Sequence record: NC_055721.1
Reading direction: 5' to 3' (one strand)
DNA length: 64,000 bases
DNA from: Escherichia phage EcS1
Shown here: positions 25,164-32,135 of the stretch, in pieces
Position numbering within the stretch: position 1 is the stretch's first letter
How the letters are laid out: every line of letters starts with the position of its first letter
Program-made: the position numbers and the translations under genes
Notes under the pieces: generated by a model
What the model was told of the DNA's origin: nothing
What the model saw: only the letters and a program-made list of their open reading frames with translations
Databases searched by the model: none

Positions 25164-25507
25164 TAAATCACCAAGTAAGTTGAGCGTTTAGTAGAAACCA
25201 ATTTTAGTCCTTCAATTGGTTCGACAATATTCTTTACAGTACCAATTGTGATGAATTCTGCATCTTTAAAACGATTCTTTTTATCGTTAAAGACTGTACC
25301 CATGTATTGGTAACCTAATTCTACGCCATGATTGTTTACAGCAATCAATACTGCATCATATTCTTCATCAGGGACCATTGAGACTGCGTGGTCCATACGC
25401 AGTTCGGTTAACACTTCATCGATGCCTTTTTGAGATACTTCACCACGTATACCAATCAAGTTCGCACGAAGAATTTTATCAATCTTTTCTTTTAGCATAT
25501 TGATCAA
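25163..25507 (-). CDS. Hypothetical protein downstream of and overlapping DAHP synthase gene
   Basis: 114-aa ORF overlapping the DAHPS 3' end by 29 nt; no confident motif. Confidence 0.4.
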   Translation of the reverse strand: MINMLKEKIDKILRANLIGIRGEVSQKGIDEVLTELRMDHAVSMVPDEEYDAVLIAVNNHGVELGYQYMGTVFNDKKNRFKDAEFITIGTVKNIVEPIEGLKLVSTKRSTYLVI

Positions 25508-26489
25508 TCTCTGTTAGAGTTTTAACTGTTTGTTCCCAGCCGATGCAAGCATCAGTCACTGAAACACCATACTTCATGTCACGAGAAATTTTCTGAGAAC
25601 CTTCGTTCAGATGAGATTCTATCATAAAACCTTTAACTAATTGGAAACCTGCTTTCAATACTTCTTTAGCTACGCCTGGTTGACGCGTGAAGTCTTTTTC
25701 ACTGTTCGAGTGTGAGCAGTCAACCATAACTGATTGGTTCACACCTGCGTGATACAGGTCGTCTAAGACATCAACAATATCGTCTTCATGATAGTTAGGA
25801 CCCTTATCACCGCCACGTAGAACGATGTGAGTGTTCTTATTGCCTACGGCATGAACGATACCTACGTTTCCGTTGTTATCCATACCTAAGTAACGGTGTG
25901 GGAACGCAGCAGATTTCATAGCATCAATAGCTACTTGAGCAGAACCATTTGTTCCATTCTTGAAGCCAACACACATAGGCAGACCTGAAGCGATTTCACG
26001 GTGTGTCTGTGATTCAGTCGTACGAGCGCCGATAGCAACCCATGAGAAAATACCACTAAGATACTTAATCGTGAATGGGTCAAGCACTTCAGTCGCTAAT
26101 GGAAGGCCAATATCTAAAAGGTCTAAACATAAACGACGAGCACAATGAAGACCATAGTTCAAGTCAAATGTGTCGTTCAAATGTGGGTCATTTACATAAC
26201 CTTTCCAACCTACAGTCGTACGAGGCTTTTCAAAATAAACACGCATAACTAACAATACGTCAGGCAATTGTTTTTGCAATTCAGCCAGACGTTGGCCATA
26301 TTCTAAAGCAGCTTTAGGGTCATGAATAGAACATGGACCCACTACAACAAGCTTACGATGGTTTTCGCCACACATAATGCGATTAACTTCTTCGCGATGT
26401 TTTTCTACTTGTTCTTTATGTCCTGCATGAAATGGAAGTTCACGAGCAAGTTCATTAGGCGAATACAACTGTTCTACAACCAAATTCAT
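25479..26489 (-). CDS. 3-deoxy-D-arabino-heptulosonate-7-phosphate (DAHP) synthase, class I (AroG/AroF/AroH-like)
   Basis: Colinear with E. coli AroG as recalled: GPCSIHD, MRVYFEKPRTTVGWKG, GARTTESQTHRE, GFKNGT, ILRGG, ESHLNEG, TDACIGWE. Confidence 0.9.
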   Translation of the reverse strand: MNLVVEQLYSPNELARELPFHAGHKEQVEKHREEVNRIMCGENHRKLVVVGPCSIHDPKAALEYGQRLAELQKQLPDVLLVMRVYFEKPRTTVGWKGYVNDPHLNDTFDLNYGLHCARRLCLDLLDIGLPLATEVLDPFTIKYLSGIFSWVAIGARTTESQTHREIASGLPMCVGFKNGTNGSAQVAIDAMKSAAFPHRYLGMDNNGNVGIVHAVGNKNTHIVLRGGDKGPNYHEDDIVDVLDDLYHAGVNQSVMVDCSHSNSEKDFTRQPGVAKEVLKAGFQLVKGFMIESHLNEGSQKISRDMKYGVSVTDACIGWEQTVKTLTEIDQYAKRKD

Positions 26490-26720: not shown

Positions 26721-27182
26721 TTAACCCCAGTAGAACGAATAGCGTACAAAGAGCTTTTCACTTAAATCAAGTTCAAGATCAAAGTCTACTTTAAAGGAGG
26801 AATAAGTAACATCTAATTTAAAGTTAGTATCTTTAAGCAGAATATTCAGTACACCTGCAACTTCACCATGAATTTGTGCCTGAGTTCCAGGCTCATTAAT
26901 GTTTTCATAGAGATGATTAGAAATAACCTGTTTAACAACCAGTTCTAAGACTTCAGTGTAACGTGGGAACTGAGAAGACTTATCTTCATCCATAAAGCTA
27001 TTAATGAATTCCAGAGCTTGGTTTAAATTCACATGACCTGAATAAAAGCGTTCACGTGTTGTACGGTTAATAGCTACAATATAAGCTTTATCAACTGATG
27101 CTGTTTCATCAATATTAAAAGCAAATTTATTTTGCTTTTCTACAAGTGATTTAGCACCATATAAGGTTTCAAAGGTAATCAT
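26721..27182 (-). CDS. Hypothetical protein
   Basis: 153-aa ORF in the cd.x-like variable region. Confidence 0.4.
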   Translation of the reverse strand: MITFETLYGAKSLVEKQNKFAFNIDETASVDKAYIVAINRTTRERFYSGHVNLNQALEFINSFMDEDKSSQFPRYTEVLELVVKQVISNHLYENINEPGTQAQIHGEVAGVLNILLKDTNFKLDVTYSSFKVDFDLELDLSEKLFVRYSFYWG

Positions 27183-27382
27183 AGGTAATTTTCCTCTACG
27201 TATTTGAATACGCTTTTGTGTGTAAAGTGTCCACCATCAACAGTCTCTTCAGTATCGTAATCACGAATATCTAAAGCAACACCGTCTTCATTATGATGGA
27301 CAACAAAGATGAAACATTTACGTTCTTCGATTTCTTCAATCAAATCGTAGAGCTCACTAATATCTTCTAAATAGTCACACAT
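27179..27382 (-). CDS. Hypothetical acidic small protein
   Basis: 67-aa ORF overlapping pseT stop. Confidence 0.35.
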   Translation of the reverse strand: MCDYLEDISELYDLIEEIEERKCFIFVVHHNEDGVALDIRDYDTEETVDGGHFTHKSVFKYVEENYL

Positions 27383-28281
27383 TAAAAGTCACCATGAGCC
27401 ACTTGCCAACATTCAACACCGATACGACGCCACATTTCTACTACCTGTGCACGGTCATCGACAGCCAGAACTACATCATAATCTTGGACAATATCGTTCC
27501 AGAAGATTTCTTCTTTCACAACGTCATCTTTACGTGGGTCGCCTTGCTTGCGCTGGAAATGCTTTTCAGTCTGAATCATGTTTTCGTTTAGCCAATTGAT
27601 AGTAGCCACACGATGTTTCAGAGGCTCATCTTTGTTACCTGATTCACGTCCAGAGACGGTAAGGATTTTAAACCCTTGTTGTTGCAGCAATTTAAGAAGC
27701 AGTACAACCATCTCACGAGGAGTATCGTCACAGAGCTTATCAAGGTCGTAAGGAGAGCGGTGTTCGTTATCGGCTAATGTTCCATCAAGGTCAAAGATAA
27801 CCGCTTGAGGGCGCCCTTCAGGATAATCAGCGGATACATATTTCATTGGAACAGACATCTTAGCGTACATAGAACGTAAGACATCAATTGGAACAGCCTT
27901 TTCACCACGATACTGGTTACGTTTCAGAAGCTCGGTCCATGGAATATCAAAACGTTCGATTTCAAGCTTAGTTTCATGTTTAACAGAGAATTCTTGCCAC
28001 ACTTTCAGAGTAGTAGGGTTCAAGTTCGTATCGGCAATGATTACGCCTTTACATCCATCAAGAGCTAACAATGTTTGAGCTGAAGAGAATTGTACTTTAG
28101 AGACAGCTTTCTCTTTTTGCTTTGTATATTTGTATTGGTTACGATATTCGAGCCCAAACAACTTTTCACGGAAGTCATCACGTGACAGGATATAGAAGCC
28201 AGGGTTCTTAGCAACATATTCATTAGCCCAAGTAGTTTTACCTGAACCTGGAGCACCTTGAGTCAAAATAATCTTTTTCAT
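27382..28281 (-). CDS. pseT: Polynucleotide kinase / 3'-phosphatase
   Basis: Near-colinear with T4 Pnk as recalled: P-loop GAPGSGKTT, phosphatase DLDGTLA, C-terminal VVEMWRRIGVECWQVA. Confidence 0.9.
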   Translation of the reverse strand: MKKIILTQGAPGSGKTTWANEYVAKNPGFYILSRDDFREKLFGLEYRNQYKYTKQKEKAVSKVQFSSAQTLLALDGCKGVIIADTNLNPTTLKVWQEFSVKHETKLEIERFDIPWTELLKRNQYRGEKAVPIDVLRSMYAKMSVPMKYVSADYPEGRPQAVIFDLDGTLADNEHRSPYDLDKLCDDTPREMVVLLLKLLQQQGFKILTVSGRESGNKDEPLKHRVATINWLNENMIQTEKHFQRKQGDPRKDDVVKEEIFWNDIVQDYDVVLAVDDRAQVVEMWRRIGVECWQVAHGDF

Positions 28282-28490
28282 TCTTTCACCAATGATTTAA
28301 TAAAGTCTTGGAGTTCTTTAGAAGCACGACCCCAGTTTTCATGATATCTTAAAGTATGCGCTTCTAAAATAGAAGCCATTTTATGAGAATCACATGATTG
28401 CTGTCGTTCTAGGTGCCGGCCATAAATTGTTGCTCTGACTTCTGATTCATAAATCAGCCCACGAAGTTGCTCTAGATGTTCAAGAGTCAT
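28278..28490 (-). CDS. Small protein, member of a tandem paralogous family (P3)
   Basis: Shares MTLE.., GL(F/I).(A/E), G.H.., MAS with 28480-28662 ORF. Confidence 0.4.
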   Translation of the reverse strand: MTLEHLEQLRGLIYESEVRATIYGRHLERQQSCDSHKMASILEAHTLRYHENWGRASKELQDFIKSLVKE

Positions 28491-28662
28491 TAGTCACCTG
28501 TAGCTCTACAAAAGTCATTAAGGCGGTTCTAGCCGAGCTTGCCATGCCGTATAGCTCTTGAACACGTGAGCTACGCATATGCAAACCTAAATTCAAAGCG
28601 CGTTGTGCCTGTTCATAAGCTTCAAACAGCCCTTTCCATACGTTATATTGTTCAAGAGTCAT
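28480..28662 (-). CDS. Small protein, tandem paralog (P2)
   Basis: See P3; overlapping start/stop arrangement. Confidence 0.4.
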   Translation of the reverse strand: MTLEQYNVWKGLFEAYEQAQRALNLGLHMRSSRVQELYGMASSARTALMTFVELQVTNDS

Positions 28663-28898
28663 AGTTTGTCAATCTCATTGAATATATTAAGCAAAGTTTT
28701 GTTAAGTTCGTATTCACTTAAATCGATTTCTTCAATTCCGTCTTTACGGCTAATAGACCCAGACCGAATACGATTAGTGGTTATCTGATTAACCCCGCCT
28801 GTGCATTTTGCACTTTCACATAAAGAGTACATCTTTGCTTTTAATTGAGTTTTTAGGTCCGGCGAATTAATCATATGTACAAAATCAAGACCAGTCAT
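28659..28898 (-). CDS. Hypothetical small protein
   Basis: 79-aa ORF. Confidence 0.35.
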   Translation of the reverse strand: MTGLDFVHMINSPDLKTQLKAKMYSLCESAKCTGGVNQITTNRIRSGSISRKDGIEEIDLSEYELNKTLLNIFNEIDKL

Positions 28899-29064
28899 AA
28901 CTTAATTCCTTATACAAAGCTTCGCGAGCAGCCTTAAGTTCTTTGGCTGATTCATATGCACATTTATCGTCGATTAATGACATTGCAACTTGTGTCTGAC
29001 GTTGACCATGTAGTTTGGCTTTGAGTTCATAAGCTGCAAACAAATCTTTCAATTTATCATTCAT
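28885..29064 (-). CDS. Small protein, tandem paralog (P1; 59 aa, not in ORF track)
   Basis: Manually translated: MNDKLKDLFAAYELKAKLHGQRQTQVAMSLIDDKCAYESAKELKAAREALYKELSYDWS; resembles P2/P3. Confidence 0.4.
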   Translation of the reverse strand: MNDKLKDLFAAYELKAKLHGQRQTQVAMSLIDDKCAYESAKELKAAREALYKELSYDWS

Positions 29065-29558
29065 ACGTCAAGTTCCTTATACAAGTCTTCACGAGCTTCT
29101 TTCAGAATTTTACCTGTTTCGCGTAAGAATGGTTCTACTTTTTCACCAGTAACGCGTCCAGAATTAACTAATGATAAATGACGACCATGACGTAAAGCAG
29201 CTTGTTCAAAGGCATGAACAATACTACGCTTACGGTCTCGTTCAAGGACTTCTTCTTCGAAGATAGGATAGTCATTAACAGAAGACATAATGGAGTACCA
29301 ATCGCGTAAAGGAATCTGAGTTTCTTCGTTCAGTTCAAATGTACGATCTACTGTATCACTATTAGGCGAATAGTATTCTACACGATGGACCATATCGCCA
29401 CCGTCTGTGAGATGCCAGATATAACAAAATGTTGCTTTCTTTTCAAGAGGTGTACGAATACAAGAACCAAGCTGCATAAGCTTACGAAGCTCAGCATTTT
29501 TGATTTTGGTAAGACGTTCAGGTGAAGAGACAAAACTGTTATAACGTGGAGCAGCCAT
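29061..29558 (-). CDS. Hypothetical protein (pseT.1-like position)
   Basis: 165-aa ORF; GAGGA RBS; preceded by UUCG hairpin. Confidence 0.4.
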   Translation of the reverse strand: MAAPRYNSFVSSPERLTKIKNAELRKLMQLGSCIRTPLEKKATFCYIWHLTDGGDMVHRVEYYSPNSDTVDRTFELNEETQIPLRDWYSIMSSVNDYPIFEEEVLERDRKRSIVHAFEQAALRHGRHLSLVNSGRVTGEKVEPFLRETGKILKEAREDLYKELDV

Positions 29559-29587
29559 AATAATATCCTCAAATTTAATTATCCCAT

Positions 29588-29603
29588 AGAGCCCGAAGGC
29601 TCT
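29588..29603 (-). promoter_or_regulatory. Intercistronic UUCG-tetraloop hairpin (AGAGCC-UUCG-GGCUCU)
   Basis: Plus AGAGCCCGAAGGCTCT. Confidence 0.55.
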
Positions 29604-29760
29604 AAGATTTTAAAATCAGTTTAATAGCTTTATATGCAAAGATTAATATCATACCAAATGCTATTAAGCCAGTCATACCACTAGCACAACCAACGCTGCA
29701 ACGCATGCAAGCAGAGCAACAACCAATCCTGCACAAAACAATGTAGCGCCTAAAGTCATT

Positions 29761-30057
29761 TTACTTTTCACACTTCACTTCCTTCAAAGGAGCTCGATAA
29801 TAACAAATGACACCGTTAGCATCTTTTACATAACGATTAACGTCATTCAACCATACTCTAAATTCCTGTGATTCATTATATGGCATTCCTACGAAAGCAA
29901 CACCATCAATCACTTTAACTTGCCATTGACCTGTCCAAGGTTTAATCGGGTCAGGCCAACTTGGGTCAACACGTTGCACAGGTTGTAGCTCAGGGACACT
30001 CTGGGAGCATCCAACCAAAAAGATAGATAAACATATGGCTAGAGATTTAAGTTTCAT
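29761..30057 (-). CDS. Outer-membrane spanin lipoprotein (o-spanin; T4 pseT.3 equivalent)
   Basis: Signal peptide with lipobox LVGC; overlaps the upstream i-spanin gene; position next to pseT. Confidence 0.7.
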   Translation of the reverse strand: MKLKSLAICLSIFLVGCSQSVPELQPVQRVDPSWPDPIKPWTGQWQVKVIDGVAFVGMPYNESQEFRVWLNDVNRYVKDANGVICYYRAPLKEVKCEK

Positions 30058-30410
30058 CTGGTCGCCTCCTGCATATCCTGAGCGAACTTATTGAAGCTGT
30101 CATTGATTTGTTTCTCAACCAATTTAGGCTTCTTAGCTACTGTATCACTTCTTTTTGCGTCTGTAAACATCTTAGCATCAGACGTATCTCTTGCTAGACG
30201 ATTTGCCTTACGTTCATCATCTAAAGCACTAAGACGAGTGAATCCATCTTTCAAATCTGTTATCTGCTTATCTTGTTCTTTAACAGTTTGTTCAACATGA
30301 GTTAAAGATTCTTTTAAGTTATCGATACGGGCTTCTTGAATCTTTACAAAAGCAAAGACACTAAGAACACCTAGTATCAACAACATGTATCCACCATTTA
30401 TAGTAGGCAT
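30054..30410 (-). CDS. Inner-membrane spanin (i-spanin; T4 pseT.2 equivalent)
   Basis: N-terminal TM helix followed by charged coiled-coil-like region; 4-nt overlap with the o-spanin gene. Confidence 0.7.
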   Translation of the reverse strand: MPTINGGYMLLILGVLSVFAFVKIQEARIDNLKESLTHVEQTVKEQDKQITDLKDGFTRLSALDDERKANRLARDTSDAKMFTDAKRSDTVAKKPKLVEKQINDSFNKFAQDMQEATR

Positions 30411-30904
30411 AATTTAACGATTGTCTCAAAGATATCGTCTTGAGTCATATTGTTGATAAGAATATGATGGGGTGAATCAGAAGCTGAAATCTTAAAGCAA
30501 GTTTCAACCATTGAAGCCATTTCGTCAGCAGTTAAACGAGAATGCTGGATTCCAAGACGATGATTACCATAGATTGGGTCAACAATAATGTAACATTTGT
30601 TGCCACTCAGATGGACATTAGGCTGGCTGATGTTAATGAACACTTCAGCGCCATATTTACCCAACTGGTTTTCAAGGAAGCTCTTCATTTCTTCTACTGC
30701 GTCAGGCATAGCATCACGACGAGCTTCAGTGACTTTGTTGTTGTATTCTTTTTGCTTTTTACGTTTAGAAAGATTACGTGCCATGGCAATACGAAGATCG
30801 GTGATGTAACCAATAGTCTTAGAACCTTTAAAGATACTGATTCCATCATGACGATCACCGTATTGAGCCATAACCATTTCATTTGTAATAAGTTGCATAT
30901 TCAT
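30398..30904 (-). CDS. alc: Probable Alc (host transcription shutoff protein) by synteny and size
   Basis: 168 aa from ATG 30904 (T4 Alc 167 aa); between rnlA and spanins as in T4; sequence not verified. Confidence 0.45.
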   Translation of the reverse strand: MNMQLITNEMVMAQYGDRHDGISIFKGSKTIGYITDLRIAMARNLSKRKKQKEYNNKVTEARRDAMPDAVEEMKSFLENQLGKYGAEVFINISQPNVHLSGNKCYIIVDPIYGNHRLGIQHSRLTADEMASMVETCFKISASDSPHHILINNMTQDDIFETIVKLCLL

Positions 30905-30933
30905 TTTAATATCCTCATTTTGTTGGTAGGAGA

Positions 30934-30962
30934 ATCTTATCACAACAAAATGAGGATGTAAA
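30934..30962 (-). promoter_or_regulatory. Early promoter (-35 TTTACA, 17 bp, -10 TAAGAT) inside 13-bp inverted repeat
   Basis: Arms CCTCATTTTGTTG (30913-30925) and CAACAAAATGAGG (30943-30955); the downstream arm contains the alc SD (GAGG). Confidence 0.55.
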
Positions 30963-32135
30963 CTACTCTTGTTCGATTACAATTTCTTTCTTATATTCGT
31001 CTGGAACGAAGAACTTGTGATTCTTGTTAAAAGCTTCGTTAAGCTGTGGAATTAACTTATCTAGGTCTAAACCACCTGTGAACGCTTTCATCAGAATTGG
31101 GAACAGATAAGAACGGTCTGCATCTTTAAAGATTGTTTGAGCAGAGATAGCGAAGTCTTTACGGTCACGACCAGCTAGTTGCTTATAAGTTGTTTGAACT
31201 AAGTCTAATGCATGACGCAAGAACTCTAAATGAATAGTTTCAAACTTATCAATCTTAGTGATAGCCCATTCATCGCCTGCGAACATAGAACGAAGGTCAT
31301 CAGAACCACCAGACACGACAGATTCGAAGAGAGCTTCGTTTTTAGTGATGGAATCTTTAGTACGATGCAAAGCAACATACCAATCAGTTTTGAGCTTAAA
31401 GTTCAAACCGTTTTCCATTACAAAAACATAACCTTCTACACCTTCTTTGGCGCGAATGCCAGGCACAAATCGTTCATCGGCAGGAACATTAAATGCTTCT
31501 ACCAAATGAGGACGAAGCATTGCATCTTTAAACAATTCTTCATATGGAACATATTCACCAGTCTTATTTTCACGAACATTCAGAAGAATCAGGTCACGTT
31601 TACTATAAGCCAGAACGATACGGTTATCTGGTGCAACGTATTCCATGTTACAAGTGAAGCCATCTTTAGTAAGTTGAGTCACACGTTTCAAGAATTTTTC
31701 ATAACGTGGACCATTGATAACTTGTAGTGCTGCATAAGCTTGTTCAGAAGAAATAGAAGCCTTAGACTTCAAGAACAGTTGGTCGTTATCTACAAAGCTA
31801 GAGATTAGAGAACCATCAGCCTTATCCATCATCAATTTGATTTTAGTAAGGTCCAAGTTCATGGTAAATGGAGTTTCATCTAAGTTAAAGAATTTTTCCA
31901 TCGGACGAGCTGCAATACGAGTAGGCTTACCATCGACCATTTCAAACATAATGCCGCGGCACTCTAGAGCGTCAGGCAGAAGCCAATCAGAGTAAGATGC
32001 ATAGTTATAACTGAAGATACGATACTCACCACCAAACGGCGTCTGGTAGTCACGGAAATAGAATTTAGACTGGTCTTTTGGGTCAGTCAATTTCATCAGG
32101 TTTTTGTACAAATCATGTTCTTGTTTAGTAATCAT
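30963..32135 (-). CDS. rnlA: RNA ligase 1 (tRNA repair)
   Basis: Matches T4 gp63 as recalled: YRIFSYNYASYSDWLLPDALECRGIMFEM, RPMEKFFNL, adenylation motif KADGSL. Confidence 0.9.
   Translation of the reverse strand: MITKQEHDLYKNLMKLTDPKDQSKFYFRDYQTPFGGEYRIFSYNYASYSDWLLPDALECRGIMFEMVDGKPTRIAARPMEKFFNLDETPFTMNLDLTKIKLMMDKADGSLISSFVDNDQLFLKSKASISSEQAYAALQVINGPRYEKFLKRVTQLTKDGFTCNMEYVAPDNRIVLAYSKRDLILLNVRENKTGEYVPYEELFKDAMLRPHLVEAFNVPADERFVPGIRAKEGVEGYVFVMENGLNFKLKTDWYVALHRTKDSITKNEALFESVVSGGSDDLRSMFAGDEWAITKIDKFETIHLEFLRHALDLVQTTYKQLAGRDRKDFAISAQTIFKDADRSYLFPILMKAFTGGLDLDKLIPQLNEAFNKNHKFFVPDEYKKEIVIEQE

Follow-up and report, generated by a model that had tools for sequence, protein, structure and literature searches.

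Predicted helical-hairpin modules related to T4 PseT.1 between the spanin genes and pseT of Escherichia phage EcS1

Escherichia phage EcS1, with a genome of 175,437 bp, belongs to the genus Kagamiyamavirus and is the closest outgroup of Winklervirus (PMC10132071). We analysed a stretch of 64,000 nucleotides of this genome (NC_055721.1; the window, to which all coordinates refer) and in particular the interval between the o-spanin gene and pseT, which holds a set of small overlapping open reading frames (ORFs) named here o165, o59, o79, o60, and o70 after their lengths in amino acids. On balance, we lean towards the reading that one antiparallel hairpin (a predicted two-helix module) of ~60-70 aa occurs four times in this interval, namely in o70, o60, the C-terminal domain (C-domain) of o165, and o59, with the orphan o79 amid them, and that these copies are dispensable, non-catalytic binding modules. 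The pseT-spanin cluster of EcS1 is an ordinary T4-like accessory-gene cluster, not a new kind of system.

Relatedness of the small ORFs

A sequence-only reading of this DNA had described three small tandem paralogues interleaved with one unrelated ORF at 28278-29064, and all four ORFs are indeed present there on the minus strand with overlaps of 4-14 nt. Among them, o70 (gp206; 28278-28490, minus strand; 100% identical to EcS1 KNT65_gp206) is the 70-aa orthologue of T4 PseT.1: phrog_2347 of PHROGs matched both proteins (E=4.9e-24 over 1-69 of 72 for o70, E=1.4e-42 for T4 PseT.1) and PF26888 is on record for o70; the local Pfam copy held no model matching PseT.1. What EcS1 shows is thus an enlargement of a gene set already present in T4, and the comparison with T4 made by the sequence-only reading, which named nothing for this interval beyond pseT.1-3, needs correcting on this point. 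The ORF o165 (gp203; 29061-29558, minus strand; 100% identical to KNT65_gp203) is a two-domain protein with a full-length match to phrog_4482 (E=1.9e-58 over 3-162 of 162), and o59 (gp204; 28885-29064, minus strand) is a phrog_4482 member at the domain level only, a free-standing C-terminal hairpin domain that covers profile positions 107-161 of 162 (E=2.8e-8) without the N-terminal domain. Neither o60 (28480-28662, minus strand), a short PseT.1-like paralogue of 60 aa, nor o79 (gp205; 28659-28898, minus strand) had a significant match in PHROGs, and o60 and o59 gave no hidden Markov model (HMM) match to phrog_2347 even at E<=10.

In pairwise tests, in which Smith-Waterman scores were set against 2000 shuffles, o70 was significantly similar to o60 (z=5.2, p=0.001) and o59 to the C-terminus of o165 (z=10.1, p<0.0005), and neither o59-o60 (p=0.06) nor o59-o70 (p=0.12) was significant alone. 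The interleaved o79 was unrelated to all other ORFs of the array (p 0.2-0.8), and no homologue of it was found in the phage collection, IMG/VR, PHROGs, Pfam, or NCBIfam; it is a singleton cluster. The partner of o59 is, on these scores, the hairpin domain of neighbouring o165 (aa 94-165; 29064-29279, minus strand; placed by Smith-Waterman, family alignments, and AlphaFold2 [AF2]). This domain is a fourth family member in the window, just outside the proposed array of three tandem ORFs, and the three ORFs and the domain form two pairs.

A word-indexed protein search gave just 2-11 close relatives per query, and the families were therefore rebuilt from the ORFs of 80 pseT-anchored IMG/VR loci and annotated reference phage regions, together with a search of 1.84 billion representatives that yielded no more than 24 clusters for the superfamily profile, almost all of which are stand-alone proteins of 57-73 aa. 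The o60 family (57-60 aa) also includes gp242 of Yersinia phage fHe-Yen9-01 and, from Citrobacter phages Moon and CF1, an ORF of 57 aa that sits directly upstream of pseT (tblastn E=7e-4; HMM iteration), and Virsaitis27 ORF234 (60 aa) is intermediate. A strict PseT.1 HMM run against single sequences misses o60, o59, and o165, which only profile-profile comparison reaches. By hhalign, the short family was linked to long PseT.1 (P=2e-5 over 57 columns; P=5e-6 over 57 columns with the EcS1 sequences removed), long PseT.1 to the phrog_4482 C-domain (P=7.8e-5 over 54 columns; P=9.5e-5 with the EcS1 sequences removed), and o59 alone to a C-domain profile built without EcS1 (P=8e-15 over 53 columns), and the best P values for 52 unrelated small-ORF families of the same loci, used as a control, were 0.039 and 0.027. 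Judged by these profiles, the family-level chain that links o60, PseT.1, the C-domain, and o59 holds without any EcS1 sequence in the profiles, and o60 joins PseT.1 at the superfamily level only.

Similarity is also visible in the nucleotide sequence. A 29-nt segment encoding helix 1 of o60 (28611-28639) is identical in frame at 24 of 29 positions (83%) to 29025-29053 in o59, and, at the C-terminal helix, a 48-nt direct repeat joins the 3' end of o59 (28906-28953) to that of o165 (29073-29120) with 35 of 48 positions identical (73%); neither value was reached by any of 300 codon shuffles. In addition, o60 and o70 open with an identical 14 nt, ATGACTCTTGAACA. It is scarcely credible that the resemblance of the three ORFs is a chance matter among unrelated helical peptides, an explanation for which the two non-significant pairings of o59 would speak, but which is already contradicted by the significance of o70-o60, by profile-profile P values 100-1000 times better than that of any of the 52 control families, and by the in-frame identity of o60 and o59, unmatched in shuffles. 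On this sequence evidence, paralogy is real at the superfamily level, as two diverged subfamilies of one helical-hairpin superfamily with paralogue identities of 19-35% in the array. The three ORFs are thus tandem and genuinely related, with the unrelated o79 between them, as had been proposed, but they are not one tight family; direct alignment joins only o70 and o60, and profiles link them all. Two other candidate relatives were rejected, namely the small helical protein RIII of T4 (P 0.006-0.2) and phrog_2364 (95-117 aa; P ~0.07-0.08), which is frequent in the interval.

Both families have the helix-1 motif φxxφφxxxExxAxx[YH]G in the same register, φ(-15)φ(-12)φ(-11)E(-7)A(-4)[YH](-1)G(0), with Gly invariant in both, and the full register is present in o70, o59, and the o165 C-domain. 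As for the shared elements listed by the sequence-only reading, the MTLE N-terminus is correct for o70 and o60, the (D/G)L(F/I).(A/E).YE box (LF.AYE / GLI.E.E) is real and in register, and the G.H box points to a conserved element that is really the [YH]G motif and is missing from o60; the M(A/S)S box is probably a coincidence, its positions not being equivalent in the profile alignment. The PseT.1 family signature (YG[RK] in helix 1 and W..A...L..FI..L in helix 2) is found in o70 as Y23-G24-R25, W53, A56, L60, and F63-I64, and o60 does not carry it, having no Trp and L23-N24 at the corresponding positions.

The AF2 models, built with family alignments and covering o70 and o165 as monomers, predict a two-helix hairpin for o70 (helices 3-32 and 36-69; mean predicted local distance difference test [pLDDT] 93.3). 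For o165 (pLDDT 93.7), they place a hairpin with helices 94-132 and 138-163 after an alpha/beta domain (aa 1-93), and in both models [YH]G lies ten residues ahead of the turn. Helix 1 has conserved hydrophobic residues beyond the a/d stripe (L12, V18, and φ21), which is only suggestive of a four-helix-bundle homodimer. Read from their sequences, the hairpin proteins have no transmembrane segment or signal peptide, and they are mildly acidic (pI 5.6-6.5). Their structural neighbours are generic only, hairpins and four-helix bundles such as Rop, and no sequence or fold match to a characterized protein or inhibitor was found in PHROGs, Pfam, NCBIfam, PDB sequences, PDB folds, or BFVD.

Gene order and origin of the array

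The order of transcription on the minus strand is i-spanin, o-spanin, o165, o59, o79, o60, o70, and pseT. The interval is anchored upstream by the spanin pair (i-spanin, 30054-30410; o-spanin, 29761-30057; both minus strand, with phrog_812/phrog_739 matches for the pair) and downstream by the polynucleotide kinase/phosphatase gene pseT (27382-28281, minus strand; phrog_505 E=2e-114), the product of which is 86% identical to the CHI14 protein. Intergenic space is absent among the array genes, which overlap by 4 nt (o165/o59, ATGA), 14 nt (o59/o79), 4 nt (o79/o60), 11 nt (o60/o70), and 4 nt (o70/pseT). Shine-Dalgarno sites are plausible for all of them but o60, where the site is weak; that of o70 is AGGTGA, and the AAGGA sites before o59 and before o79 are built from the ...LYKEL codons of the preceding gene, so that the 48-nt repeat both encodes ...AREALYKE and supplies the AAGGA of the next gene. 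An Rfam scan of 27000-31000 gave no match, and a scan for promoters and terminators gave signals not above shuffle expectation. The best DNA matches of the region in the annotated phage collection, which does not include EcS1, were Winklervirus phages (~82% identity over 44% of the region).

Across ~45 T4-like loci, the o-spanin-pseT interval is a mosaic with 0-4 hairpin modules each, composed of phrog_4482 (full-length, truncated, or split), PseT.1, the short PseT.1-like form, a Karamvirus-type 70-aa form, the unrelated phrog_2364, and orphans. T4 has one module, most genera one or two, Virsaitis27 and Pectobacterium phage PM2 three, and EcS1 four, the maximum of the sample; the related metagenomic contig P0015 has phrog_4482 in the interval and no other hairpin ORF. 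A PseT.1-type gene lies directly upstream of pseT and in the same orientation in EcS1 (o70), T4, CHI14, X20, Virsaitis27, and L010/L012, with Marfa as an exception (a 58-aa ORF intervenes), and o60 is one gene further upstream than o70. Moon shows the arrangement phrog_4482, ORF X, short form, and pseT, and PM2 combines, independently and in a different order from EcS1, a free C-domain of 71 aa with a PseT.1-like ORF and a full-length protein.

The free C-domains are not closest to the copies in their own genomes. o59 is 46% identical to the Dhakavirus copy versus 34% to the o165 copy of its own genome, and the free C-domain of PM2 is 55% identical to the full-length protein of another genus versus 31% to its own-genome copy. 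Because o59 is closer to copies of other genera than to that of its neighbour, these identities suggest that it was imported or is ancient and is not a recent in-situ duplicate, and that alleles have recombined. Most likely, the array would have come from unequal recombination between different alleles of the mosaic interval, one of them Winklervirus-like (phrog_4482 - PseT.1 - pseT) and the other Moon-like (phrog_4482' - X - short PseT.1-like - pseT), with crossovers at the conserved ...LYKEL 3' end and the MT.EQ 5' start, and the 3' hairpin of the second allele would have been left behind as o59. We infer this scenario because of the 3' repeats of o165 and o59, the identical 5' starts of o60 and o70, and the Moon arrangement, which it appears to fit better than recent local duplication would.

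The phrog_4482 gene is also altered elsewhere: it is split by a frameshift into ORFs of 89 and 92 aa in one IMG/VR genome (L011 2803-3287, plus strand) and truncated N-terminally to 104 aa in Yersinia phage fHe-Yen9-01 (L004 2187-2501, plus strand). As read from these sequences, it decays or is remodelled in some lineages.

No entry of the public EcS1 protein set has the exact o60 sequence, the flanking genes gp205 and gp206 are numbered consecutively there, and the deposited annotation leaves a 180-nt unannotated stretch at this place. That depositors did not call o60 as a gene is one of the points for a different view, in which o59, and possibly o60, are non-functional recombination leftovers, i.e., 3' or 5' fragments of replaced alleles that are still open; so are the truncated and split phrog_4482 genes just described, the resemblance of o59 to foreign alleles, and the lack in P0015 of hairpin ORFs apart from phrog_4482. 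We consider this quite unlikely. Both o59 and o60 span exactly one complete hairpin with the heptad pattern kept, o59 has every motif residue in place although it differs from the closest known allele by at least 54%, and both starts are placed on the upstream stop, that of o59 with an AAGGA Shine-Dalgarno site. Moreover, three genera have the short form at a length of 57-60 aa, and a free C-domain is also present in PM2. The precise fit to one domain, the motifs kept, the coupling of the starts, and the presence of the same forms in other genera thus speak against the leftover view for both ORFs.

Possible function of the hairpins

In T4, pseT.1 is non-essential, with insertions at 17/17 sites in the HIDEN-SEQ transposon screen, and the adjacent spanin genes pseT.2 and pseT.3 were scored as 'strong fitness defect' and 'essential', respectively (bioRxiv 10.1101/2025.11.20.689424 supplement). 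No main-text mention of pseT.1 was found in the searchable literature. We propose that the hairpin genes of EcS1 are expressed from an early/middle-strand operon with pseT and coupled in translation through the overlapping stops and starts, and that their products are probably dispensable accessory proteins of the cytoplasm that act by binding and not by catalysis. Each hairpin would pack against a second hairpin (as a homo- or heterodimer forming a four-helix bundle) or against a partner protein, with contact made through helix 1, the carrier of the conserved surface, and different copies would have different specificities for host or phage targets. Such a binding role is our reading of size, fold, the helix-1 surface, dispensability, and modular shuffling.

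Several observations weigh against this reading. Matches between single sequences are weak (o60 versus PseT.1, P=0.016; o70 versus the C-domain, P=0.029; P 0.02-0.2 for such comparisons across the two subfamilies), and the link from PseT.1 to the C-domain is a statistical one (P ~1e-4) drawn from short helical sequences. o60 keeps φ, φ, φ, and E of the helix-1 register but not A, [YH], or the otherwise invariant G. The recombination scenario is reconstructed from present-day arrangements only, and for o59, o79, and o60 no close donor turned up. Finally, the binding function is argued from size, fold, and dispensability only.

The sequence-only reading had taken the array to be rapidly diversifying, but this does not show among orthologues: at 61% each, the identities of o70 and o165 to their counterparts in Serratia phage CHI14 fall in the range of the neighbouring alc (52%), i-spanin (50%), and rnlA (66%), and therefore the hairpin genes are not unusually fast-evolving. 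This bears on its suggestion of an anti-defence or host-takeover array, in which every paralogue would have its own target for neutralization among host immunity or housekeeping proteins, and host range would be reflected in the number and type of copies. Such an array is compatible with the binding modules we favour, as one specific version of them, and we regard it as a tentative possibility, somewhat unlikely as it stands. It agrees with the accessory status indicated by the non-essential T4 pseT.1, with an interval content that varies by lineage across genera with different hosts, and with the placement of these small early proteins next to alc and pseT, both host-interaction genes. On the other hand, the proteins resemble no characterized inhibitor in sequence or fold, their orthologues diverge no more than neighbouring genes, and we found no experimental link in the searchable literature, where pseT.1 is absent from main texts. 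A bolder proposal is in our view unlikely, namely that PseT.1-type hairpins are modular inhibitors shuffled by recombination, each copy of which, free or joined to the phrog_4482 N-domain, would bind a host defence or stress protein of its own; in a variant, they would be RNA binders like Rop that help PseT/RnlA to repair the damage done by anticodon nucleases. If the inhibitor version were true, the interval would be an anti-defence island of T4-like phages.

The hairpins might also serve their neighbours, with o59 pairing with the o165 C-domain to regulate o165, or with PseT.1-type proteins acting as Rop-like RNA-loop binders that aid tRNA repair by PseT/RnlA. In favour are the coupling of PseT.1 to pseT, which it directly precedes, the presence of Rop and other antiparallel hairpin dimers in the set of structural neighbours, and the domain common to o59 and o165. 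Even so, this is very unlikely, given that many T4-like phages have pseT but no PseT.1, or phrog_4482 but no free hairpins, that the proteins are mildly acidic, and that the fold matches are generic. The dispensable binding modules of the preferred reading remain, for us, the best account of the interval.

PseT.1 is one of many T4 genes without a function, conserved beside the RNA-repair gene pseT. What is already known is that the T4-type accessory families concerned are catalogued and uncharacterized, and EcS1 is an enlarged instance of them with one unannotated gene. What would be new is the union of the PseT.1 hairpin and the phrog_4482 C-domain in one superfamily, with short and free-standing variants of the same module, which brings together several 'hypothetical protein' groups and is a modest step. 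Copy numbers that run from one (T4) to four (EcS1) make this concrete protein module a natural experiment. Its biological importance is modest until a target is found.

Neighbouring features and comparison with known systems

Two micro-ORFs lie between o-spanin and o165 on the minus strand. One (29673-29771) encodes 32 hydrophobic aa, MKSKMTLGATLFCAGLVVALLACVAALVVLVV, from a GTG start with an AAGGAAG Shine-Dalgarno site and overlaps the o-spanin stop; the other (29602-29676) encodes 24 hydrophobic aa, MTGLIAFGMILIFAYKAIKLILKS, and has an ATGA overlap with the first. The 32-aa micro-ORF is conserved (M+K.TLGA.LFC.GL...) in Winklervirus, in Karamvirus-type loci, and in L042; Virsaitis27 (ORF236) is the only phage in which it is annotated. 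Like o60, both micro-ORFs are missing from the public EcS1 protein set. Because of their position beside the spanins, they may be membrane micro-proteins. Between them and o165, a UAGAGCCUUCGGGCUCUA hairpin (29587-29604, minus strand) has a 7-bp stem and a UUCG tetraloop, with a z-score of -2.4 for the 66-nt fold. Stable CUUCGG intercistronic hairpins occur in T4 mRNAs, and the EcS1 hairpin resembles them. A second family of hydrophobic micro-ORFs of ~35 aa (...GWD..RFG..CFCFGI.FS.C..GLFGK) is found in the Dhakavirus-type interval (L005 2012-2119, plus strand, EcWhh1_45; also L022 and L033-L040) and, at another place, in Virsaitis27 (L002 2614-2721, minus strand, ORF233), a difference in placement that suggests mobile micro-ORFs.

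On the other, downstream (cd) side of pseT, a 336-aa ORF (25479-26489, minus strand) encodes phospho-2-dehydro-3-deoxyheptonate aldolase (DAHP synthase), the annotation that it has in Winklervirus and Marfa; T4 has no such auxiliary metabolic gene in that region. Between it and pseT (26721-27382, minus strand) are ORFs of 67 and 153 aa, the latter just 33% identical, over partial length, to an 88-aa cd.3-like protein of CHI14, and this segment is, from its sequence, a second variable block flanking pseT.

T4 PseT.1 (NP_049835; phrog_2347; PF26888) is an uncharacterized conserved hypothetical protein. o70 is like it in position upstream of pseT, length class, the motifs LKGLIxExE...YGR...WGxAS...L, and the predicted hairpin, and o60 is a shortened relative without ~13 residues around the turn and without the invariant Gly. 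T4 has a single PseT.1 copy, whereas EcS1 has two PseT.1-type genes and two copies of the related C-domain. Proteins of phrog_4482 (~160 aa) adjoin the o-spanin gene in Winklervirus, Dhakavirus, Karamvirus, Marfavirus, and others. In EcS1, o165 represents the full-length form, and o59 corresponds to the C-terminal 55 residues without the N-terminal alpha/beta domain. PseT.1 and phrog_4482 are two distinct families in PHROGs, and we propose here that they are linked. The Rop (ROM) protein of ColE1, a 63-aa helical hairpin that dimerizes into a four-helix bundle, has no sequence similarity to the EcS1 hairpins, and its match to them, obtained with predicted monomers, is generic for hairpins. The interval as a whole reminds us of the plastic (hyperplastic) regions of T4-type genomes reportedly described by Comeau et al. 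2007 and Arbiol et al. 2010, in that small, non-essential, lineage-variable early ORFs lie between conserved anchors and are shuffled at short conserved sequences; unlike in those regions, the junction homologies of EcS1 lie within coding sequence, at gene ends and starts, and not in promoter-stem-loop cassettes.

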